A stretch of DNA of 64,000 bases, taken from an uncultured Thermodesulfobacteriaceae bacterium. Its GTDB lineage: Bacteria > Desulfobacterota > Dissulfuribacteria > Dissulfuribacterales > UBA3076. Both the position numbers and the translations under genes were made by a program. The DNA lies in the NCBI GenBank assembly GCA_964646435.1, contig CAZYEJ010000001.1, positions 4,912-68,911 on the forward strand, in the 5' to 3' direction. The notes beneath the pieces were generated by a model. That model ran no database searches, was not told the origin of the DNA, and saw only the letters and a program-made list of their open reading frames with translations. Shown here piece by piece: positions 1-11,298 of this stretch (positions are counted from its first letter, which is position 1; every line of letters starts with the position of its first letter).

Positions 1-2405
1 ATGTCCACGCTGCGCCGGGTCTGTCCAAAACGTTTGATACGCCCCAACCGCTGTTCCAGCCGCGATGGGTTCCAGGGCAAATCCACGTTAATGAGCGTGC
101 CAAGGGTCTGCAGGTTCAACCCTTCGCAGGCAGCGTCGGTCGCCACAACCAGCCGGATCTCCCGTTTTTTGACAGCGTTCTTGATCTCTTCACGCTCCAC
201 GGAAGCGAAATCCTTCCCTCGGAATAGCCCGCTTTTACCTGTTCCCGCATAGACACCGACAACTTCGCTTGTGAGAGATTTTGCCAACTGCCCACCAAGC
301 GAGTATGCGGTATCGTAATATTGGCTGAAGATGATGCAGCCGTGCTCAAGCCAGGTTTTTCCTTCACTGGGATACGATGTCAGGAAATGCTTCACCGCTT
401 TAAGCTTTGGATCACGTGCTTCCGGGCGTGACAGCTCCTCAACGATAGCATGAAGGTAACCTGCTTCCTCATCTGTGAGCGCGCTCATTGCCTCTTCCAT
501 CAGATGGGTCTGCTCTTCTTCCTCAAAAATCTCCCTACGTAGCATTCTCTCGGCCGTTGCCCTGCCGGATGCAAAACTGGAACATATCCGCTGAAGAAGC
601 AAGGTCTTCATGAAACCTGCAGCTTTGGTACGTTTTTGCAGCGCTTTGGTAAACAATTCTGCAGCGTTGTAAGCAAGGTCGAATGGCAGATTTGTCAGAA
701 GCCCCAGGCCGTTGAACCTTACTCCGGCGTAAGCAGTGGCGGGCGCATCCGGATTAGGGTAAACATTCACACCAACCTTCTCCAAAAGACCCGCATCTTC
801 CAAGGTCTGTCTGCGTCGCAAAACTGTATGGCGAATGAAGGGGTTGTTTTCCCTCAAGAATCCTGGCTCCAGGGCCTGACCAACCGCCTGTTGTTCAAGA
901 AAGCCCAGTGATCCAAAACCCTGATCGGAATAAAAAATCTGCTCAGGCATCCCCAGTTGCAGACGCAAGGTTGCAAAAAGAGCATTCTCGTCTGCAGGTG
1001 GCAATGGATTGCGCAACCATTCCCAGGCATCTTTTTCATCCAAAGGCGTTTCATCCCCCTTCACCACTGGCAGCGCTTTTTCATAGTCGGCCCACCGGCT
1101 GTAAAGTTCATGGCCGAGGACAAAATCCGCACCGGCATTAAGAACACGCAGCAGGTCCCACAACTCGTTGACTTCGGTCTGGATGGGGGTTGCCGTGCCA
1201 AGTAACAGATTCTTTGTGCGAAGCCCGATTTTCAGCATAAAATCAAGCAGATTGTTCGGCTCTTCTTTTCTCTGGCCGAGACCGCCGCGTCGGCGGGCCT
1301 TGTGTGCCTCGTCCAGAACTACCGTTCCGTATTTCCGCTCGAGCAAATATTGACGTTCATTGGAATCATGGACAATCAGGCCTGTGGAAACAATAGCAAT
1401 TCGGAACGGACAGCGGATGATGTCTTCAGCACCACGCGTCTTGATAATATGCCCTTTGGGATCGAACCAAAGCTTTTTGGTGGATGACCAGACCGCGCTC
1501 GGGATGCCGAGCTTGTCTGACAATTCCACCTGCCATTGCACCGTCAGCGTCGAAGGGCAAAGAATCAGCACCGGGCCGTCTCCAAGCAGGGCCGAGATCA
1601 TGGCGCTTGCTCCCAGCGACAATGTTTTGCCGACCCCAACATCATCGGCGAGCAGCAGGCGTACCTTGCCGTAAGTCTTCCGGTGTTGCATGAACATGGT
1701 AACAAAGGAGCGCTGCCACGGCTGGAGCTGTTCACCGCCGCGGTAGATCGGGCTTTCGGCCAATGCCGCAGCCGGCAGTTCATCAACTTTTGCCTCATCA
1801 AAGCGGATTTCCACACGATCCGCAACGCGTTTGATTTCTTCAACAATGGCATCGGGCAGAGGATAGGCGTCCTGCCAGAGAGCGTCAAACTCCTCTTCGA
1901 CCCAGGCGACACCTTCCGGCGACGGATCCTCCCAAAGGATCTCGTAATTCTGGGCAAAGGCACTCTTGGTCTCGTTGATTGAACCGAGGAAACAGGTCTT
2001 TACGCCGTCTGCAGCCTCAATAACGCCAGCCTTACCATGGATAAAAACGCGGTCCTTAGGCACCACCCGTATCTCGACCCGTCCGCTGGTCAAGAGATCA
2101 TGCAGCCGCCGGTAGCGATCCCGGTGGAGCAGCGCCTCAACCTCGGCAGGGGCCTTATTCCAACGTTCCTTGAGTGCTGTTTCGCGGACATGCTTCGACA
2201 CGGCCACATCGGCCGCGTCAAGCTCGCTGTTACATACAATCTGTACCTTGGGGATAGAGGCGATCTCTTCGCCTACCAGCTCGAAGATCGAGCTGCGAAA
2301 ATAGCCGGCGATACGCTTATAGGACTTTGCCCCCCGAAGCCGATCAGCGAGAAAGGCATGGTCGAGCCTCTGGCGGCGCGAGGAGAAGCGTTTGATGGTG
2401 GTCAT
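1..2405 (-). CDS. PLD(HKD) nuclease domain fused to SNF2-family helicase. The 5' end is complete; the C-terminus runs off the window start (about 801 codons visible).
   Basis: My own minus-strand translation; the ORF has no stop in the window, so it is absent from the ORF track. Starts MTTIKRFSSRRQRL at 2405. HKD-type motif FIHGKAGV...GSINET. SNF2 motifs occur in canonical order: LLADDVGVGKT, DEAHKAR, LLGTATPIQTEVNELWDLL, ATDAACEGLNLQ, DLPWNPSRLEQRLGRIKRFGQ. Confidence 0.85.
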   Translation of the reverse strand, partial: MTTIKRFSSRRQRLDHAFLADRLRGAKSYKRIAGYFRSSIFELVGEEIASIPKVQIVCNSELDAADVAVSKHVRETALKERWNKAPAEVEALLHRDRYRRLHDLLTSGRVEIRVVPKDRVFIHGKAGVIEAADGVKTCFLGSINETKSAFAQNYEILWEDPSPEGVAWVEEEFDALWQDAYPLPDAIVEEIKRVADRVEIRFDEAKVDELPAAALAESPIYRGGEQLQPWQRSFVTMFMQHRKTYGKVRLLLADDVGVGKTLSLGASAMISALLGDGPVLILCPSTLTVQWQVELSDKLGIPSAVWSSTKKLWFDPKGHIIKTRGAEDIIRCPFRIAIVSTGLIVHDSNERQYLLERKYGTVVLDEAHKARRRGGLGQRKEEPNNLLDFMLKIGLRTKNLLLGTATPIQTEVNELWDLLRVLNAGADFVLGHELYSRWADYEKALPVVKGDETPLDEKDAWEWLRNPLPPADENALFATLRLQLGMPEQIFYSDQGFGSLGFLEQQAVGQALEPGFLRENNPFIRHTVLRRRQTLEDAGLLEKVGVNVYPNPDAPATAYAGVRFNGLGLLTNLPFDLAYNAAELFTKALQKRTKAAGFMKTLLLQRICSSFASGRATAERMLRREIFEEEEQTHLMEEAMSALTDEEAGYLHAIVEELSRPEARDPKLKAVKHFLTSYPSEGKTWLEHGCIIFSQYYDTAYSLGGQLAKSLTSEVVGVYAGTGKSGLFRGKDFASVEREEIKNAVKKREIRLVVATDAACEGLNLQTLGTLINVDLPWNPSRLEQRLGRIKRFGQTRRSVD

Positions 2406-3454
2406 ACCGTCTGTGGATGTTGTAGCCATCCTTTCCGTTCAAGGATGTCCCAGGCGAGTCTGATATGCTTTTCCTGAAACATTCGCTTATGGTCATTCCA
2501 ACTATAGGTTTTGCTGACCGCCTGGTCTGCTGTTGTGGCGCCTTCGCGGTTTGCGACCCAGTGGACATTAGACAGAAGTTCCATGCCGAATGGTGTTTCA
2601 AAGCCGGAAATGAGATCGACTACCCTTTGAAAGTGTTTCCGGGTGGAAGGATGATCTTCAAGAAAACTCTCCGCTTGTGGAAGAATTTCGGGAAGTAGGT
2701 TGATCTGCCGTTCCGGATTGTCCTCCGCATCGCCATACCCGCTAATGAAATGCCCTTCCATAAGGATCAACACGTGGCGCAGGTTCCGGGCATATGGGCC
2801 ATAGAATCCCTTGTTGTACTGAAGTTTCAATCCCTCTCCCGCCTCCTGCATAAAATACATCAATTTGTGAATCTCCAGAAGTGTCACAAAAGGGTCCATG
2901 ACCGCCGCAAGATAACGGCGCATCAAAACAAGCAGCGCTGCCCGCCCGACAGTCATACTTGGGATTTTCTTGGAATGGACCATTTTTTCGGCAGAAGGTG
3001 CTCCTTTAGGTTCATAGAGGAGAACATGTACATCAGTCAGATCCTGAAAGGCCTCTTCAATTCTCGTCCGCACATCCGCCCAGAGCAAACCGCCAAGCCC
3101 ACAACCAAGGGGGGGGATAGCAATGGAATGGATGTTTTTTTTGCGCACCTCTTCAACTAGGGCCTGCAGCCCGGCCTCGATATCCTCCATCCGGCTCTTG
3201 CCTTTCCAGTGGCGTTTGGTTGGAAAATTGATCACATAACGGGGGTTATAGAGGCGGTTAAGATCATAGATGAACATCTTGCCCGGTTGCAGTTCCTTCT
3301 TGTCGCATATCGCCTTATAGCGCTTGAAATTTTCAGGAAAAACTTTCTTGAATTGTAGGGCAATTCCCCGGCCCATGACCCCGACACAGTTCACGGTGTT
3401 CACCAGCGCCTCGGCATCTGCGCGCAGTATGTCGCCTTGTGTCAATTCAATCAT
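2402..3454 (-). CDS. darG: DarG-like antitoxin (N-terminal macrodomain ADP-ribosyl glycohydrolase plus C-terminal DarT-associated domain)
   Basis: Macrodomain signatures GDILRADAEALVNTVNCVGVMGRGIALQFK and IPPLGCGLGG. Lies directly downstream of a DUF4433/DarT-like gene. Its TGA overlaps the helicase ATG (ATGA at 2402-2405). Confidence 0.85.
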   Translation of the reverse strand: MIELTQGDILRADAEALVNTVNCVGVMGRGIALQFKKVFPENFKRYKAICDKKELQPGKMFIYDLNRLYNPRYVINFPTKRHWKGKSRMEDIEAGLQALVEEVRKKNIHSIAIPPLGCGLGGLLWADVRTRIEEAFQDLTDVHVLLYEPKGAPSAEKMVHSKKIPSMTVGRAALLVLMRRYLAAVMDPFVTLLEIHKLMYFMQEAGEGLKLQYNKGFYGPYARNLRHVLILMEGHFISGYGDAEDNPERQINLLPEILPQAESFLEDHPSTRKHFQRVVDLISGFETPFGMELLSNVHWVANREGATTADQAVSKTYSWNDHKRMFQEKHIRLAWDILERKGWLQHPQTV

Positions 3455-3472
3455 GGGTGCCTCCTTCGATGC

Positions 3473-4123
3473 TTAATAATACCATTTTCTTTCGATTGTC
3501 ACGACCGGTTTATGCTGAACATTTTGGAGAATGCTGTTGACTTGATGGCGTATCCTCTCATTCAAGACCCCGATTTTTTCCACCAGATGCCATGGGCAGG
3601 TGTCGTGAAGCAAAAACTCCGCCTGTTTACCTTCTTTAACCACCCGATCACGAAAGTCGGTGGATTTGACGGCTTCCCAATCTATCTTTTCTAGATCCTT
3701 ACGACTCTTATAGAAATCGGTATAGCGAGTACCCGCATTCTGGGCGGAAAAAGCCCAGCGAATATTATGCTCATCAGCCCAATGGATGGCAGACTCCATA
3801 TCAACCTGGAGGTGAAGGATAGGGCGCTGCCCCTCATGATAGAGCATATCAATGTGGTTATTTTTGTAAATGATAAAAAGCATGATAGAGCGGGGACAGA
3901 AATAGAACGGCACATAGTCACCAACCCGGGTGTTTTGGTGACAATGTACGTCAATCTCGAACAACCGCCTACGCTTAATTTCGGTCATGCCGATTGATGT
4001 CTGCCCACCACCTTGCCGGATGCGCCTCCCATCCGCTTCGATGCAACCGGCAGCCACAATGGAGGCGAGATTGTCGATATGGGTGACATGGTAGACTTTC
4101 GGCTGGGCAGGTGGTGTTGTCAT
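3473..4123 (-). CDS. darT: DarT-like ssDNA ADP-ribosyltransferase toxin (DUF4433 family)
   Basis: The N-terminus (YHVTHIDNLASIV), the GDYVPFYFCPRS motif and the C-terminal QAEFLL (catalytic-Glu context) are typical of DUF4433/DarT. Paired with the macrodomain gene 18 bp downstream. Confidence 0.85.
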   Translation of the reverse strand: MTTPPAQPKVYHVTHIDNLASIVAAGCIEADGRRIRQGGGQTSIGMTEIKRRRLFEIDVHCHQNTRVGDYVPFYFCPRSIMLFIIYKNNHIDMLYHEGQRPILHLQVDMESAIHWADEHNIRWAFSAQNAGTRYTDFYKSRKDLEKIDWEAVKSTDFRDRVVKEGKQAEFLLHDTCPWHLVEKIGVLNERIRHQVNSILQNVQHKPVVTIERKWYY

Positions 4124-4134
4124 ACAACCCTCAC

Positions 4135-7100
4135 TTATCCCAATCGCTGGGTCTTGATTAGTTCCCTGAGTACCCTTGCAGCGCTGGCCTCTTCCGGCCG
4201 CAGTTCTTCGAGACGTCTGGCAAGGAAATCCGCCAACGCTACTGCCATCTCTCGTTGGGTCATGTCGCCGTAGTAGTTGGGGATATTCATGGTCAGATGG
4301 GCCTGTACTTCATTGCCGTCCATGTCTTTGGTAAGTTCCATCATGGCGTAAAGCACGGCCCGCAGTACCGACTGATAGAGTTCCGAGCTTTCGCCCATCT
4401 CGGCGCGGTCGAACTCCACCGCACTCTTCAGCCGGGCGTTGTTGGCTCTCCGGCTGGCCATGAAGGCCTGGAAGTCGCGCACCTTGAAGGCCTTGGCAAA
4501 GTTCTGATAATTGTCCAGGGTCTTGGCGCCCCGGGTTTCCAGTTCAAGCATTTTGAGATAGAATCGTTCCGCCCCGCTCAGTTTGTCCCAGTAACTCTTG
4601 GGGATGCCCTGGGGTACCAGGCACTGGTTGGCGGTGTCCACCGCAAAGGAAATGAGACCGTCCACAAAGGTGGTCTCACCCTTGACCCGCGGCCGGATTG
4701 ACTCAGTGGTCATGTCCCGGCCGTCGATGATGGCGTAGCGGGTGAGTACGCGCAGGGCTGCCGCATAGCCTGCCATCTGGATGTCGGCATCCTCGAAGAC
4801 ATTTTCATCACGATAAAGTCCCTTGGCCTCCTGATTGAGCCCGGTCAAAGCCTTTACCTGGTCTTCGACCTCCTCCTGGATCTCCCAGGCAAGGTCATCG
4901 CGAGTGGTCTTGTGCCTGCCCAGTCGTTTGCGGCAGACAAGAAGCACCGTGCCCTTGACATAGCTACCGGTACGAAGCGCGCTGTCAGTTTCGGTGACTA
5001 CATACCAGGCAGCGGTGACCTGCAGGCCCGAGGCCCAAACGATATTGGCCATATCCGCCCAGATGGAACCGGACTGATGGGTGAACATGATGACCTGAAT
5101 GCCGTTGTCCGGCATGCACTCGGTCATCCGTTTATAGGCTGCCACCATCCCTCGGCGAAATTCTTCGCCCTCTCCCTTGATGGCCAGCGACCTGCGGCTG
5201 TCCCATACCCAGTCGGCGAACTCGGGAGGCGGATTCTTGCGCAACCAGGCGATGAAAAATTCGAGAATTTCATCATAGTTGACCGCGTTACCGTAAGGCG
5301 GATCGGTAATGAAAATATCATGAACCGTTGACAGGGTATTGCCCGGAGCAGGTTGGACAAATGTACTTACATCCCTCAAAGGGAACCTTTTGCAAGATAG
5401 CTTAACCTGGTTGGCGAGGTAATGACTCGAACGAGTTCCGTGGTTATAAAGCGAATTAACTGCCTGATTATAAAAACTATCGTTCACAGCATCTACCCCA
5501 GGCGCATTGTGCCAACGACTCAACTTCGAGTTCCAATTCGCCGCTTGGTTCACACCGAATTTTAGAGCGGCTGTTGTTGAGTAGCAATTAATTAACCCGT
5601 TTACAAGTAATTGTCTTGGGTTAAAAAGATGATGCCAGTGTGTCCAGCCACGTTCACGGATAGGCTGATCGGTGTTATAGCCCGGCTCGATGCGCATGTC
5701 CGGCACCCATCCTTTCTTTTGCCACTCAGCTAAGTGCTTCTTTACATAATCTTCAACGATACGCTCCCGTTGCAGGTCCACCTCGGTGACGGTACGAAAC
5801 TCGTAATCGAAGGTCTTCTTACCTTTTTTCCGCCGCATCCAATGAATGGCATACAATCTTTCCTGAAAAATGTCGTCAGGCCGAGGCTTAAAATCGTGCT
5901 TTTCCCACAAACGCAGCCGGCTACCCTTCGTTCTGTCGTCTTTCCGATAGTCACCTCGCAATGTCGAAATTTTAGTTCGGTATTCGTGGCCATTGACAGA
6001 GTGGACCAAGTACGAGTCGTGCCCCCGCCCATCAGTACGTACAGTGCCATTTTTTGCTTCAACGAGTTCTTCTGCGGTCACACCAACCCTGACCACAATA
6101 TCATAACGCATGCGAGCGATATCCGGCACCAACTCGGCGATTACCATTTTACCACGGCTGATGACGAGTGACGGAATCAGCGGAACCATCCAGCCCGTTT
6201 GTGGACAGCGGACTTCAACACAATAAAGAAATGCCTTTGGCCGCCAGCCATCGCCATCGGTTTCCACCCCAAGTCGGTCAATTTCGGCTTGAACTTTTTC
6301 AATCAATTCCTGCTGTTGGCGCTCCAGCTCTTCACGGCTTCCCGGTGAGCCGCCCACAATATTAAAGGCGCCCCAGGTAAGCATGCAAGCTACTGGATTA
6401 AGATCGGAGGCATATACGTCACAGCCAAGCCTTGCCGCCTCGAAAGGGATCTGACCAGAACCACAGAAGGTGTCAGCCAACTTAGGACGATGACCGAAAC
6501 GCATAATGCCAAGCTGCTCAACAAGTTCAGGAATCGAATGTGCGAACGTACCAAGATGAGTATTGACCATATCCCATATGTGATCGTGAACGCTGTCCAT
6601 AACCTCTTCAGGGCGCTTTGCTGCTGCTACCCGTTCTCGGTACGAAGTCATGGGCAGCATTTGCGTTTCCATACGACGGCGTTCCAGCTCAGTCAAATCC
6701 TCACGCCAGAAGACTTTTACTCCGTCATAGTCAGGGTTTGACCAATCAATCGGTGCGTGTGCGGGAAGTATGCCCTCCGGTTCTGTAGTGAAATAATCAG
6801 AAATATTTGAAATTGAGAGCTTGGAAAGGATCTCCTTCGGCTTTGCGCGGTGCTTCCAACGAATGACAAAAGATTCATCATCCATGGCCATCAGTTTTTC
6901 AAAAATAGCCAGATCACGGGCCGAATCATCGGTGGCCGGCAACAGACAGCCAAGAATGCAGGCCTTATTCATAATCAACGGCTTGCGGCCCTTCCAATAA
7001 CTGCCAAGCGCGGTGAGGGTTTTGCCCTGATTTGCCATCTGCTCCTTGTATGCCTCGGCCGAAAGCTTCTGCACCGGCAACAGCCGTTCTATCAGGGCCG

Positions 7101-7140
7101 GAGCATCTTTCAAAGAAAATGGGATTATTTCTTCGCTCAT
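4135..7140 (-). CDS. DUF1156-type DNA methyltransferase (N6-adenine/N4-cytosine class), 1001 aa
   Basis: SAM-binding motif DTFCGSGQIPFEAARLG...ASDLNP and catalytic motif ITDPPYGNAVNYDE. Size and the N-terminal region are typical of the DUF1156 methylases that accompany DUF499 ATPases. Confidence 0.85.
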   Translation of the reverse strand: MSEEIIPFSLKDAPALIERLLPVQKLSAEAYKEQMANQGKTLTALGSYWKGRKPLIMNKACILGCLLPATDDSARDLAIFEKLMAMDDESFVIRWKHRAKPKEILSKLSISNISDYFTTEPEGILPAHAPIDWSNPDYDGVKVFWREDLTELERRRMETQMLPMTSYRERVAAAKRPEEVMDSVHDHIWDMVNTHLGTFAHSIPELVEQLGIMRFGHRPKLADTFCGSGQIPFEAARLGCDVYASDLNPVACMLTWGAFNIVGGSPGSREELERQQQELIEKVQAEIDRLGVETDGDGWRPKAFLYCVEVRCPQTGWMVPLIPSLVISRGKMVIAELVPDIARMRYDIVVRVGVTAEELVEAKNGTVRTDGRGHDSYLVHSVNGHEYRTKISTLRGDYRKDDRTKGSRLRLWEKHDFKPRPDDIFQERLYAIHWMRRKKGKKTFDYEFRTVTEVDLQRERIVEDYVKKHLAEWQKKGWVPDMRIEPGYNTDQPIRERGWTHWHHLFNPRQLLVNGLINCYSTTAALKFGVNQAANWNSKLSRWHNAPGVDAVNDSFYNQAVNSLYNHGTRSSHYLANQVKLSCKRFPLRDVSTFVQPAPGNTLSTVHDIFITDPPYGNAVNYDEILEFFIAWLRKNPPPEFADWVWDSRRSLAIKGEGEEFRRGMVAAYKRMTECMPDNGIQVIMFTHQSGSIWADMANIVWASGLQVTAAWYVVTETDSALRTGSYVKGTVLLVCRKRLGRHKTTRDDLAWEIQEEVEDQVKALTGLNQEAKGLYRDENVFEDADIQMAGYAAALRVLTRYAIIDGRDMTTESIRPRVKGETTFVDGLISFAVDTANQCLVPQGIPKSYWDKLSGAERFYLKMLELETRGAKTLDNYQNFAKAFKVRDFQAFMASRRANNARLKSAVEFDRAEMGESSELYQSVLRAVLYAMMELTKDMDGNEVQAHLTMNIPNYYGDMTQREMAVALADFLARRLEELRPEEASAARVLRELIKTQRLG

Positions 7141-7715
7141 TTCAAATCCTTGAACAAAGGTAACTCAAACAAATCTTCCTGCCGGGGCCGGGGACGGCGT
7201 TTTCTTCCTGACACCAATTTCTCGCCATCGGAAAGGGCGTGAAACAAAGCACGCCGCCAACCGCGCTGGTTATCCTCAGGCAAGCCTGCTTCGGCCACGG
7301 TCATGGCAAAGAGCCACCAGCGCTCCTCGGGGCGCAGGGCCGCCCACTTGCTGCAGATGACCGGGAACTGCTCGGCCTTTGCGGTTTCCGCGGCCCAGGC
7401 CAGCACACACAGTTCCTTACCCAGCAATCTATCCACCAGATTAGTGCCGGTATGCCAGCGCCCCACACGGACCTTGGCCACCTTGAGCCGGGCGTTGAAC
7501 TCGCGGCGGGCAGGGTCGGCGATGGCCGACCAGACCTGACGCTTGAGCACGACCCGTTCCTCCTCGCGGGGAACGCCGCCCTCCTCCCCCCGGTATCCAT
7601 AGTTTTCGACTATCACCACCGAATCTTTTCTCGCAGCCGAAATCAAGACGCGGAACAGGTGGGTGCCAAATCGGTCCGGGGCACCGAAGTCAATGGTTTT
7701 TGGTTTTTCACTCAC
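7137..7715 (-). CDS. Small conserved partner protein (DUF3780-like by position)
   Basis: 192-aa ORF translationally coupled on both sides (ATGA overlaps at 7137-7140 and 7712-7715). The family name is inferred from its position between the DUF499 and DUF1156 genes, not from a motif I can verify. Confidence 0.6.
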   Translation of the reverse strand: MSEKPKTIDFGAPDRFGTHLFRVLISAARKDSVVIVENYGYRGEEGGVPREEERVVLKRQVWSAIADPARREFNARLKVAKVRVGRWHTGTNLVDRLLGKELCVLAWAAETAKAEQFPVICSKWAALRPEERWWLFAMTVAEAGLPEDNQRGWRRALFHALSDGEKLVSGRKRRPRPRQEDLFELPLFKDLK

Positions 7716-10700
7716 TGCTCGACATCCTCAGGCTGCAACTCAATGCCGAGCTTGCCGGCGAAATCCTTGAGGTCATGGCCCGAGGAAAAATGAGCCTTTC
7801 GAAAGGTCATGGTGACGGGTGTGTCGGGTGTAAATTTTTCAAGAACCTTGGAAAGAAGCGCCTCGATAAATAGTGCATCTACCTGGATTTCCCCAACATT
7901 GACGGCGATCATCCGGTTCCCCTGGCCAACGGTCAGCACAATCCCTTCGAAGCTGACGGATTTTTCGGTGGCCTGTTTCAATCCCTCAAAGGTCTTGCTC
8001 CGTGAATCGAGCTTACGGCCGGTACGCGAGACAAGGCGGCAGGGCTTCACCTCATCGATCTGCACTCCTTTCTGACCTCTGGCCTGAAAACGGAACTCCG
8101 CTTTGGCTTCGAGCTTTTCCGCCTCGCCAAAGGCACACAGCAGGACTTCGCCGTCTCCGATGGTAATCGGACCGTCGTATACTGTGCCGTCACGCGGTTC
8201 GCTGCCATCAAGAGTATAGCGGATTTCTCCCTTGGGAGCGACAAAGAGTTCAACACTGCGTGTGCCGTCATTTTCCGAGAGTTTGTTGCGGAGGACGAGT
8301 TTATTTGTCCAGGTTTCCGGATCGCCGCTTTCGTACTGGCCGGAGGGGTCACATACAAAAAAATTCACCCGCAATGCCGAGGTTGTGTAAATCTGATCCT
8401 TGAGTTGGGGACTCGCTTCGCTGACCGGTCCGTCTTCGGCGAGATAGATGCGGGGGGCCGGACCGGCGTTCTGCGGATTAATACATAACCGGACCTGGCC
8501 TGCGTCGTCAGGCCCGGACTCGGCAATGACTTGCACGGAGGTGCGTTTCTTTTTCGGCTTCTTGGTGACGTAGCCGTTGCCGAGATCCTCCCACAACCCA
8601 CGGTTGCAGGCAATGGATTTGAGGCTGTCCAGTCCTTTGGGTGGCAGCCACGGCATGCCGGCCTGTTCGCTATAACGGTCGGCCACATCAGACCAGCGAG
8701 CATCGTCCAGGTTTTGCGGCCAGAGTACATCCTGTGCCTTGTCACGGATGGCGTCGAACTCTTTTTCCACGTCAAGATAAAGCTTCAGCGGGTGAGTAGT
8801 CAGGGTTTTTTCAATCTGTTCCTCACCGTTGAAAGGCTTGGTGGCGTCGCGGGTCATGTCCAGGGCCTTTGAGGCAAGTTGGGACGGTTTGTCGGGACGC
8901 TGGATCGGGAAGAGCACCTTGTCGAAGAGGTTGAGGATGGTGGAGTTGAAGTCCTGCTTATAAATCTCCTGTTTTCGTTCCAGATCCTCCCGCTGCAGGT
9001 GTCCCTTGGGGATACGGCCGTCTGCCTTCTGGGCGGCAAAGAACTGACGAGCTGCTTTTTCGACGCTGCCCATGGCCGTCTTATCGCCGGTGAGGACACA
9101 GAGGTTGTTTTTCTGGCTCAGGCCCTCGAAAAATTTCTGAACTTCTTCGGGCGGGATCTTGGAGTCCGGGCTGACGACGAGCAGCACGCGGCCACGGCGT
9201 ACCCGGTCTGCCACCTCTTTAAGCCTGGGCAAGGGCAGGACATCTTCATAACATGTCTTGCGGATGGGCTTGAACATGTCACATAACCGATGACGGATTA
9301 GATCATCTACCTGATTCTGAGGGGCGTCGTGGGCCAAGCTCTGCAGCAGCTTTGTGAGGTTTTCCTGCCGATCGAAATAATAACGGCCTTCCGGTGTATG
9401 GTGGATATACCAGGCAATTTTTTCAAGCTCATCAAAGGCTCCGAGGAATTCTGACGGCTCGCGGAGGGGTGAGATCAGGCATTCGACCATTTCTTCCCGA
9501 GTGAGCCCCTTTACCGCGTTGACCGCCGTTGACAAGCTGGCAGAAAGAAGCAGCGCCCCGATCTGAGTGGCGGCTTCCTTTCCGGTAGCAAGATCAATGA
9601 TCTGGGCGTGTGCGGATTGCTGCGCATCCCAGAGATCCTTGGCAATCACGTCCCGCATACCGGAAATCTCGGTCAGCTTGTCACGGACTTCCGCGATAGA
9701 CAGGTCGAAATGCTGGGGGCCGACGAGAAAGACATCATTGGCCTGCCGTTCCCAGACAGACCTGAGAAGCCGCGACACCAGCTCGATGAGACCCCGGGTC
9801 TGCTTGAATTGCTCATTTTCCTTGAAGAGCGCAATGACATTCTTGAGTCGTGGGTGAAAGGGGTAAGTCGCCTCTATCTCGTTGGCAACCGCCTCGGCGC
9901 CACGATTGGCGGTCTTTGATTTGGCTGCCTCTTCCAACTTGCGGCCAAAGGTTGCCGCAACATCCTCGATCTCCGCCTTGTCAGGAAACGACTTAAAGAG
10001 ACGCTTGCGCAGGATGTCGTATATCTCATTTGCTGCAAGGTCCACCGGCGTGATGTTGCGCTCCTGTCGGCCCAGTTCGGAACGTGCGTCTTCAAGGGCA
10101 CGATTAATAAGTTTTCCACCAGTTTCGTAGGCAGCCGCAAGATCAGAAACAACCACGCAGACATTCTTCTTTTTACCCGCTGCTGTAATCATATTGGCAA
10201 AGGCACGGGTTGCGATGTCGGCGACAGTGCCGTTTCCCACCTTCTGGGTGTCAAGATAGTGGAAGTAGGGGGGCATTTCGTCAAGCAGGATGAGGACAGG
10301 CTGATCGCCTTCAAAAAGTTTGAGCCAGTCTTTTTCGTCCGGGGCCTTGGGGCCGCTGGTCCAGAATGGGCTGAACTGATCCCCTTTGCCGAGCTGGTGA
10401 GCAATCTCGCCCCAGAAAAAATGATCTGGATTGTTACGGCCGTTGAAGGCGGCAATGTCGGCACTCGCGAAGGCGGATGCCTGTTGAATTCCTCCGCAGT
10501 GAGTCTTCCGAAGTTCCGGATGCCTGGCAAGCAGACCAAAACCGACCAGAAGATGGGTTTTACCACCGCCCATGGCCTGTTTCAGATGAAAAACAGCCTG
10601 GGAAGAGGTGCCAGCCAAACGAGCAAGTCCTTCACTGATGAGATCCTGCATGCCTTGGGTGATATAGGTTTTCTCGAAAAACGCCTTGCCATCCCCTTCT

Positions 10701-10795
10701 GTGGTTATCAACTCGTCAAGCTGCTCAATCTGATCGCTAAGCTTGATCGACAATGCATTCGGCTGCAGTTCGCAAGCATCTTTGACTGTTTTCAT
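7712..10795 (-). CDS. DUF499-type P-loop ATPase, 1027 aa
   Basis: Walker A QAMGGGKTHLL about 70 aa from the N-terminus. Walker B-like LILLDEMP. Large size and synteny with the DUF1156 methylase. Confidence 0.78.
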   Translation of the reverse strand: MKTVKDACELQPNALSIKLSDQIEQLDELITTEGDGKAFFEKTYITQGMQDLISEGLARLAGTSSQAVFHLKQAMGGGKTHLLVGFGLLARHPELRKTHCGGIQQASAFASADIAAFNGRNNPDHFFWGEIAHQLGKGDQFSPFWTSGPKAPDEKDWLKLFEGDQPVLILLDEMPPYFHYLDTQKVGNGTVADIATRAFANMITAAGKKKNVCVVVSDLAAAYETGGKLINRALEDARSELGRQERNITPVDLAANEIYDILRKRLFKSFPDKAEIEDVAATFGRKLEEAAKSKTANRGAEAVANEIEATYPFHPRLKNVIALFKENEQFKQTRGLIELVSRLLRSVWERQANDVFLVGPQHFDLSIAEVRDKLTEISGMRDVIAKDLWDAQQSAHAQIIDLATGKEAATQIGALLLSASLSTAVNAVKGLTREEMVECLISPLREPSEFLGAFDELEKIAWYIHHTPEGRYYFDRQENLTKLLQSLAHDAPQNQVDDLIRHRLCDMFKPIRKTCYEDVLPLPRLKEVADRVRRGRVLLVVSPDSKIPPEEVQKFFEGLSQKNNLCVLTGDKTAMGSVEKAARQFFAAQKADGRIPKGHLQREDLERKQEIYKQDFNSTILNLFDKVLFPIQRPDKPSQLASKALDMTRDATKPFNGEEQIEKTLTTHPLKLYLDVEKEFDAIRDKAQDVLWPQNLDDARWSDVADRYSEQAGMPWLPPKGLDSLKSIACNRGLWEDLGNGYVTKKPKKKRTSVQVIAESGPDDAGQVRLCINPQNAGPAPRIYLAEDGPVSEASPQLKDQIYTTSALRVNFFVCDPSGQYESGDPETWTNKLVLRNKLSENDGTRSVELFVAPKGEIRYTLDGSEPRDGTVYDGPITIGDGEVLLCAFGEAEKLEAKAEFRFQARGQKGVQIDEVKPCRLVSRTGRKLDSRSKTFEGLKQATEKSVSFEGIVLTVGQGNRMIAVNVGEIQVDALFIEALLSKVLEKFTPDTPVTMTFRKAHFSSGHDLKDFAGKLGIELQPEDVEQ

Positions 10796-10831: not shown

Positions 10832-11020
10832 TCAATGGTCGGCAGTCTCCCCGGCGCTGCCGCTTTTGACCCACTCGTCGATCTCTTCTTTCTTGAATTT
10901 CCAGAGGCGGCCGACCTTGTGGGCAGGCATGTGCTTTTCGCTTATCCACTTGTAGGTAGTATCGCGCTTGATGCCAAGATATTCCGCTATTTCATCGACA
11001 GAGAGCCAACGGTCTTCCAT
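10832..11020 (-). CDS. Excisionase/MerR-type helix-turn-helix DNA-binding protein (62 aa)
   Basis: LSVDEIAEYLGIKRDTTYKWISEKHMPAHKVGRLWKFKKEEIDEWV is a classic Xis/AlpA-like HTH_17 pattern. First gene of the minus-strand operon. Confidence 0.8.
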   Translation of the reverse strand: MEDRWLSVDEIAEYLGIKRDTTYKWISEKHMPAHKVGRLWKFKKEEIDEWVKSGSAGETADH

Positions 11021-11298
11021 ACTTTAACACCTTGCGTGTTGATTACAGAGAATCTGGTTTAATCAGGTTTTATCTGGATGAAGAGGTATAGATATGTATC
11101 TAAGGGAAAAGCAAGGTGGTGTCAAATGGTTCTGAGGAGATTCTGGAATTCCGATATAAGGATGAAGCAAAGCACTATTGTGCTCAAGAAAATCTAAGCC
11201 TCCCCTGTTTGGCATAGATCTGATCTCGGTTAATATTGAGTTCTTTTTCGGTATCGCGAACAGGGACATTGGCCAGCATGAAAACCTCATGCGATTTA

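Follow-up and report, generated by a model that had tools for sequence, protein, structure and literature searches.

A DarTG2-type toxin–antitoxin pair as probable long-term cargo of a Type-2 BREX-related operon

We examined a 64,000-nucleotide stretch of contig CAZYEJ010000001.1 from an uncultured Thermodesulfobacteriaceae bacterium (hereafter the window), in which a darT–darG gene pair lies between a DNA methylase gene and a helicase gene. The pair is probably a DarTG2 abortive-infection and toxin–antitoxin (TA) module, carried over the long term as cargo in a slot of a Type-2 BREX-related (BR) operon, where it would act autonomously as a second layer of defence. Comparison with related loci supports long residence of the cassette in its operon, co-expression with it and, probably, translational chaining to it.

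All genes of the operon are on the minus strand, and the junctions were read straight from the window sequence. The darT gene (3473..4123; ATG at 4123, TAA at 3475..3473) encodes a predicted single-stranded DNA ADP-ribosyltransferase toxin of 216 residues, and darG (2402..3454; ATG at 3454, TGA at 2404..2402) a predicted antitoxin of 350 residues, composed of a macrodomain ADP-ribosylglycohydrolase and a C-terminal DarT-binding domain. The methylase gene ends with TAA at 4137..4135 and is followed by an 11-nt spacer (4124..4134, GTGAGGGTTGT), which provides darT with a GAGG Shine–Dalgarno (SD) site (anti-SD duplex −8.9 kcal/mol). The 18-nt spacer between darT and darG (3455..3472, GCATCGAAGGAGGCACCC) includes GAAGGAGG, the strongest SD site of the operon (−11.7 kcal/mol). 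At the other end of the cassette, the darG stop codon TGA and the helicase start codon ATG (2405..2403) share the tetranucleotide ATGA at 2402..2405, a likely termination–reinitiation site. The first-pass annotation of this DNA had placed darT 11 bp after the methylase stop and the ATGA overlap at 2402-2405, and both positions are exact. A short direct repeat at the cassette ends (ATGACAACACC at the darT start, ATGACCACC at the helicase start) was considered as an insertion scar and rejected, because it is too short and ATGA starts are common in insert-less helicase genes.

DarT matches Pfam family PF14487 (DUF4433) from end to end (profile positions 1-201; 199.3 bits against a cut-off of 22.5; E-value 7e-59) and the PADLOC DarT model with an E-value of 6e-64. 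It also aligns with Thermus DarT (PDB 7OMV, E-value 3e-32) and with Mycobacterium tuberculosis DarT (7YK3_A). We mapped the catalytic residues compiled in a review (PMC9967889) onto the alignment with Thermus DarT. Residues H12, T14, N18, R53, Y74, M81 and E169 of the window protein correspond to H13, T15, N19, R51, Y71, M78 and E160 of the Thermus enzyme, and this catalytic and NAD-binding set is invariant across 16 homologues of 56-88% identity. The sole difference is Thermus H119, which is replaced by N129 in the window DarT, as it is in M. tuberculosis DarT.

DarG matches the PADLOC DarG model over its full length (1-341, E-value 1.5e-137). Its macrodomain (Pfam Macro, E-value 8e-26) matches PDB entries 5M3I (E-value 1e-51) and 5M31 (E-value 1e-49) and retains K80 and W83, K80 being the catalytic lysine of TaqDarG. 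Residues 167-336 match 7YK3_B, the C-terminal chain of M. tuberculosis DarG that was crystallised with DarT (E-value 2e-25). Both proteins are intact, as had been proposed from their motifs, and VPFYFCPRS and KQAEFLL in DarT as well as NCVGVMGRGIA and PPLGCGLGG in DarG are all present. Since a macrodomain antitoxin marks DarTG2 and the DarTG1 antitoxin is a NADAR protein (PMC12255303), we assign the pair to DarTG2 and not to DarTG1. Judged by sequence, it is a DarTG2-type TA system in which both proteins carry their catalytic residues.

The family matches of the neighbouring genes bear out the placement of the pair between a methylase and a helicase gene and identify the host operon. BR systems of Type 2 have a core of a DUF499 AAA+ ATPase, a DUF1156 N6-methyltransferase and a helicase-nuclease, Hma being the corresponding Type-1 BR system (Rakesh & Krishnan 2026, PMC12839542). 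Their synapomorphies are a standalone DUF3780 protein, an N-terminal HKD domain on the SNF2 helicase and FnIII-like domains in DUF499 (PMC12839542). The window operon contains this core and each of these features by Pfam and PADLOC. Its DUF499 AAA+ ATPase (7712..10795, 1027 residues) matches Pfam DUF499, Fn3_assoc and CHB_HEX_C_1, PADLOC DUF499 (1647 bits) and HmaC (E-value 7e-53). The marker of Type 2, a DUF3780 protein of 192 residues with a GTG start (7137..7715; Pfam DUF3780, E-value 4e-71), overlaps both neighbours by 4 nt, with GTGA shared with DUF499 and ATGA with the methylase gene. The methylase (4135..7140, 1001 residues) is a predicted DUF1156 N6-adenine DNA methyltransferase (Pfam DUF1156; PADLOC DUF1156_MTase, 1491 bits; HmaB, E-value 5e-26). 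Finally, the gene at 1..2405 encodes an HKD (PLD)-SNF2 helicase-nuclease, the predicted restriction effector (Pfam PLDc_2, SNF2-rel_dom and Helicase_C; PADLOC PLD_Helicase, 1314 bits), with PLDc_2 at residues 21-177. This gene runs past the window start, so that 801 of 901 residues are visible; the full 901 residues are seen in the near-identical contig L001. In general, the PADLOC DUF499, DUF3780, DUF1156_MTase and PLD_Helicase models match at 270-1650 bits, and those of HmaC, HmaB and HmaA are weaker. By these family assignments the host is a Type-2 BREX-related (Hma-like), restriction–modification-like defence operon. In the literature covered, we found no experimentally characterised Type-2 BR system, and the only tests known to us concern the Type-1 protein HmaA.

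The first open reading frame (ORF) of the island (10832..11020) encodes a 62-residue HTH_17 protein (Pfam HTH_17, E-value 1.4e-18), a candidate regulator of the operon. It lies 36 bp upstream of DUF499 and occupies the same position in L001, L005 and L010. A perfect TTGACA hexamer is found within the 200 nt upstream of this gene (about 11021-11220). The middle part of the methylase gene (about 5200-7000), which probably encodes an inserted target-recognition domain, has a GC content of 0.47-0.51, below that of its ends. The methylase is also the least conserved backbone protein in related operons, with 67-77% identity compared to 83-90% for DUF499 and the helicase, and the low conservation together with the GC dip is consistent with diversifying specificity.

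To follow the cassette through related genomes, we inspected gene order in contigs whose DarT homologues are 88, 85, 83, 74, 72 and 64% identical to the window protein. The same six genes in the same order recur in each of them, and this arrangement is seen in L001, L005, L007, L010, L012, L014, L029 and L092. The flanking genes vary from locus to locus (Mrr; lactamase/Fer4; cysS; flagellar genes; Schlafen/AAA_14) and represent at least six neighbourhoods, which indicates that the operon moves as a unit. The spacing within the operon is constant, with 10-11 nt including GAGG between the methylase gene and darT, 17-18 nt including AAGGAGG between darT and darG, and ATGA at the darG/helicase junction. 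This last overlap is kept in all 13 intact loci for which it was computed, a number that includes duplicate contigs of one operon. L006, a contig of 1.85x coverage in which the DUF499 and DarG ORFs are broken up and darG is 170 bp away from the helicase gene, is the only exception to the geometry. DUF499 is divided into two ORFs in both L006 and L014:3287-6374, and L017 has neither the methylase gene nor the helicase N-terminus; these are signs of decay or of assembly error.

A metagenome scan yielded nine more loci in which the methylase C-terminus and the 11-nt spacer lie upstream of darT (L096-L098, L100-L104 and L114). About 15 diverged DarTG operons, with DarT identities of 64-88%, share the spacing. 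Since the junctions are identical in every intact related operon examined, their geometry is, at the level of sequence comparison, not a product of chance. The first-pass annotation had argued from the coupled junctions that the pair did not land here recently, and the recurrence of the six-gene operon with its exact spacing, while DarT falls to 64% identity, agrees with this. It had also proposed to compare the composition of the pair with that of its neighbours. darT (0.46-0.51) and darG (0.47-0.53) indeed have a GC content 3-8 points below the backbone (0.50-0.62) in eight of eight operons, but recency does not follow: the dip is present in all eight diverged operons alike and marks a separate origin, and we therefore rejected it as a sign of recent arrival. 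The island as a whole has a GC content above that of the 64-kb window (0.477).

We scanned one-genome-per-species contigs with the DUF3780 profile and took the best 80 of at least 581 DUF3780 loci; in 47 of these 80 Type-2 BR loci, the junction is visible from the end of the methylase gene to the start of the helicase gene. The methylase–helicase junction is empty in 19 of the 47, with a stop-to-start distance of −4 to +21 nt, typically in the form TGAgATG or with a 13-nt spacer. DarTG occupies it in three loci (L020, L029 and L092), L043 has a 156-bp gap without an ORF, and about 25 operons carry other modules. Most common among these, in about 10 loci, is a Schlafen/AlbA_2 or DUF4062 protein fused to HATPase_c_4, with or without Fic_C. 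GmrSD is found at the junction in two operons, and AbiJ_NTD4, DUF3800, AAA_21+DUF4276 (PARIS-like), MNT+HEPN and PIN in a single case each. Several junctions hold small ORFs without a Pfam match, among them L035_g1, L044_g1 and L065_g1. L016, which belongs to the DarTG clade, has a Schlafen-HATPase gene at the junction instead of DarTG.

A second slot, between the DUF3780 and methylase genes, is used in L029, L037, L043, L047, L049, L051, L052, L055 and L093. Its cargo consists of YhcG/DUF1016 PD-(D/E)XK nucleases (five loci), PIN toxins (L029 and L043), Uma2 (L052) and a Schlafen-HATPase-Fic_C protein (L093). L029 is doubly loaded, with PIN in this slot and DarTG at the methylase–helicase junction. 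A different position is seen in L059 (16371-18085; a metagenome-assembled genome of Hydrocarboniphaga), where a very divergent darT/darG pair follows the helicase gene of an insert-less Type-2 BR operon at a distance of 59 bp. The DarT of this pair is approximately 23% identical to the window DarT by tblastn (Pfam DarT, E-value 1e-55), and by its divergence and position we read L059 as a second, independent association of DarTG with Type-2 BR. The junction survey as a whole shows DarTG, in comparative terms, to be optional cargo in an exchangeable slot. The first-pass annotation had proposed aligning this junction in relatives, where the pair proves to be present, absent or replaced, and had named relatives with the same operon, no DarTG and an identical phenotype as what would undo its reading; the first half of that, operons lacking DarTG, is what the survey finds.

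More distant DarT homologues (at most 56% identity) are found in hsdM-hsdS-darT-darG(-hsdR) loci or beside unrelated neighbours. Pfam recognises Methylase_S among the upstream neighbours (8 of 47) and HSDR_N among the downstream ones (5 of 35), tblastn with a single HsdS query gave 13 cases upstream of darT, and 4-nt overlaps of hsdS and darT are frequent in type I restriction loci. Two closer copies, L122:5975-7753 and L105:5975-7774, lie inside type I restriction–modification (RM) islands, although their darTG segment is approximately 86% identical to the window operon (DarT 77-79%, DarG about 90%). We had considered that, above about 64% DarT identity, DarTG is confined to BR operons, and these two loci exclude this. 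Their homology to the window covers a 1779-bp cassette, namely darTG flanked by 26 nt on the upstream side and by about 35 nt on the downstream side. The first of these flanks consists of the terminal 15 nt of the methylase gene, stop codon included, and the 11-nt spacer; the second is the helicase start MTTINRFSSRRQ. Stubs of BR genes on both sides indicate that these cassettes left a BR operon. L122 and L105 share 95% identity along a stretch slightly longer than the BR-homologous part, and thus point to one escape event. The L122 cassette is intact; in L105, darT is frameshifted and darG is intact. In another copy, L099, 37 methylase codons persist beside a housekeeping gene.

In a tree of concatenated DUF499 and helicase sequences, the DarTG operons group together, with L016 nested inside them and the insert-less L033 as their sister. 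In a tree of DarT and DarG, the BR-embedded copies form one clade within a wider radiation of HsdS-adjacent and free-standing pairs. The two topologies are most simply read as DarTG entering a Type-2 BR operon once, being passed on with it thereafter and being replaced on at least one later occasion. DarT diverges faster (64-88% identity) than DarG (77-93%) in L005, L007, L010, L012, L014, L029 and L092, and its identity does not correlate with that of DUF499 and the helicase; this pattern suggests either cassette-level recombination between related operons or accelerated evolution of the toxin.

We calculated anti-SD duplex energies for six DarTG operons, with random positions giving −3.0 ± 2.7 kcal/mol. 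The darG start has the strongest site of the operon (−7.1 to −12.7 kcal/mol), followed by darT (−4.2 to −8.9 kcal/mol), and the starts of the backbone genes give about −3 to −9 kcal/mol. The helicase start shows no anti-SD pairing in any of the six operons (+0.4 to +1.2 kcal/mol). In insert-less operons, helicase starts with a 5-13-nt spacer have a moderate SD site (−5.9 to −9.2 kcal/mol), and those with a 1-nt spacer have weak to moderate SD-like pairing within the methylase 3′ end (−1.5 to −7.3 kcal/mol). Because the helicase start is SD-less in every DarTG operon scored, reinitiation after darG is likely, and the proposal that helicase translation is tied to darG is credible. These data suggest that the helicase is normally translated in tight succession to the preceding gene, here darG, and that the coupling is an ancestral habit. 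Since coupling is the default of the operon, it shows long residence and co-expression, not functional partnership. The coupled junctions emphasised in the first-pass annotation thus speak for long residence but not for a special tie between DarG and the helicase, given that the upstream backbone junctions also overlap and that insert-less operons space the two genes by −4 to +21 nt.

A scan of consensus motifs gave 14 promoter matches compared to 8.7 ± 3.1 in shuffled sequence and 11 terminators compared to 13.7 ± 3.3, which we take as chance level. Promoter-like hexamers in darT (3870-3843 and 3792-3764) and a hairpin in darG (2948-2929) were considered individually and rejected as lying within the shuffled expectation. 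Independent expression of darTG had been named as an observation that would overturn the operon model, and the scan reveals no internal promoter or terminator above chance.

These results suggest the following scheme. Seven genes, HTH_17 and the six of the operon, would share a single transcript that starts at a promoter ahead of HTH_17/DUF499. Ribosomes would initiate at the separate SD sites of darT and darG, and the stronger darG site would yield an excess of antitoxin over toxin. Those stopping at the darG TGA would restart at the overlapping helicase ATG; in insert-less relatives, ribosomes ending the methylase gene would supply the helicase restart. When a phage shuts off host expression or evades restriction, DarG activity would drop, and freed DarT, presumably of the thymidine type, would ADP-ribosylate replicating single-stranded DNA and so abort the infection. 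Additionally, the TA pair would penalise loss of the operon.

Some points weigh against this reading of a long-term autonomous cargo or limit its reach. Both trees were built by neighbour joining and carry no support values. DarT and backbone identities are unlinked, with 64% for DarT and 89% for DUF499 in L014 as compared to 88% and 86% in L005, so strict co-divergence of DarTG with the backbone was discarded. The uncorrelated values make recombination among related operons likely, and exchange of cassette or backbone complicates the story of a single capture. The GC dip shows that darTG has a separate origin and is silent on function. Neither a promoter nor a terminator was found at the cassette borders in the consensus scan, although a promoter within the coding 3′ end of the methylase gene would be beyond what such a scan can exclude. 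Finally, the case for co-transcription and for reinitiation is built on gene spacing and SD energies.

In the EcoprrI type I RM locus, the gene of the PrrC anticodon nuclease is placed between those for modification and restriction, and PrrC is the classical restriction backup; it lacks a cognate antitoxin, and the RM complex keeps it silent. The window resembles this locus in that an abortive-infection toxin gene lies between modification and restriction genes. An alternative to autonomous cargo would therefore be that DarT is a wired-in, PrrC-like backup effector guarding the BR machinery, with DarTG sensing, or restrained by, the complex of DUF499, methylase and helicase. DarT would fire when a phage anti-restriction factor disables the complex, and translational coupling would fix the stoichiometry of DarG to helicase. 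One DarTG lineage has indeed long resided in the operon without change at its junctions, and helicase initiation seemingly depends on darG. Other cargo of this slot is also of abortive-infection or guard type (PARIS-like AAA_21+DUF4276, Schlafen-HATPase, HEPN-MNT and AbiJ), and backup effectors have been proposed for BR systems by Rakesh & Krishnan (PMC12839542). However, the window DarT, unlike PrrC, has a complete DarG directly downstream with its residues intact, and an antitoxin of its own provides latency without the host complex; in this respect the pair is not of PrrC type. Additionally, 19 of the 47 related operons have no cargo at the junction and about 25 have other cargo, L016 carries Schlafen-HATPase within the DarTG clade, an intact cassette exists outside any BR operon in L122, and sister DarTG lineages are free-standing or reside in type I RM loci. 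These observations weaken the suggestion of the first-pass annotation that the toxin works as an effector for the system around it, and we consider the guard model unlikely. We give similarly little credence to the corresponding functional wiring of the BR-resident pair, by which an SD-less helicase gene slaved to darG would fix the ratio of effector to antitoxin and make DarT a fail-safe. If true, it would be a PrrC-like guard made from a self-contained TA pair.

Somewhat less probable still is a selfish addiction cassette that stabilises the BR island or itself and contributes little to defence, its tight junctions being no more than what persists in a compact operon. For type I RM loci, Jankevicius et al. 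(PMC5179494) raised addiction as another option. The island appears foreign to its host, with a backbone GC content of 0.53-0.60 compared to 0.48 for the window, the operon is found in many different neighbourhoods, and the cassette moves by itself. Nevertheless, phage defence by DarTG has been shown experimentally, the RM-embedded island of enteropathogenic Escherichia coli (EPEC) included (PMC12255303). The cargo of the slot is overwhelmingly defence-related, and in L105 the toxin gene is frameshifted beside an intact darG, the order of decay expected of a dispensable toxin and no sign of addiction. That a free-standing pair with its own promoter and terminator was inserted recently and to essentially neutral effect, for which the lower GC content of darTG, the weak hexamers in darT and the weak hairpin in darG could be cited, is highly improbable and effectively refuted by the comparative data, since about 15 operons keep the exact spacing even where DarT identity drops to 64%, only 11 nt precede darT and no gap follows darG, and the promoter and terminator matches are at the level of shuffled sequence.

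The autonomous cargo reading has a precedent in type I RM operons, where DarTG was first noted in 2016 (PMC5179494). The RRDM island of EPEC (RptR-HsdM-HsdS-DarT2-DarG2-HsdR-M48) provides phage defence and has a single upstream promoter with 6-bp palindromic repeats and a first ORF for an RptR-family repressor (PMC12255303), and its gene context is that of the more distant relatives of the window DarT. As in RRDM, DarTG2 in the window lies between modification/specificity genes and the gene of an ATP-dependent restriction motor, the gene junctions are tight and the first ORF is small and regulator-like, HTH_17 being likened to RptR by its position. Unlike RRDM, the window host consists of DUF499, DUF3780, DUF1156 and HKD-SNF2 proteins in place of HsdMSR, so that darTG is flanked by neither hsdS nor hsdR; there is no M48 peptidase, and the motor gene is SD-less and overlaps darG.

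Hma (Type-1 BR) operons contain a hotspot for defence genes between their core genes, with embedded Septu, AAA_21 pairs and GmrSD (PMC11232893; PMC12881386), and this hotspot underlies the 'Hma-embedded candidates' of PADLOC (PMC12881386, citing Payne et al.). The window operon belongs to the same host superfamily, its DUF499, methylase and helicase matching HmaC, HmaB and HmaA, and GmrSD and AAA_21 cargo is also found in the Type-2 BR loci. It differs in being of Type 2, where DUF3780 and an HKD nuclease are present, whereas Hma has a C-terminal PD-(D/E)XK nuclease. The BR catalogue of PMC12839542 lists Schlafen-HATPase, HEPN-MNT, PIN and PD-(D/E)XK genes in BR loci, nucleases only, and we recovered the same cargo in both Type-2 slots. 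The text of PMC12839542 makes no mention of DarT, ADP-ribosylation or macrodomain antitoxins, and an incomplete literature search, with LeRoux 2022 and the PADLOC papers of Payne et al. outside it, revealed nothing explicit on DarTG as cargo of Hma, BR or BREX operons. DarTG2 in RM operons and cargo slots in Hma/BR operons have thus been published already. The novelty lies in their combination: a monophyletic DarTG lineage that resides in a Type-2 BR operon with unchanging junctions, the SD-less helicase start and the escapes that carry stubs of BR genes.

The window operon would represent a second, independent class of RM-like host for DarTG2, in which the pair again lies between methylation genes and the gene of a restriction motor. 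Type-2 BR operons offer a natural comparison set, in which one backbone occurs with DarTG, with about ten other cargo types or with nothing, and this set may serve the question of whether embedded TA modules cooperate with their host system or ride along. The SD-less helicase start yields a simple, testable prediction on how translation of a restriction effector may be coupled to that of an antitoxin. For annotation, genes of unknown function at the methylase–helicase and DUF3780–methylase junctions are good candidates for defence genes.

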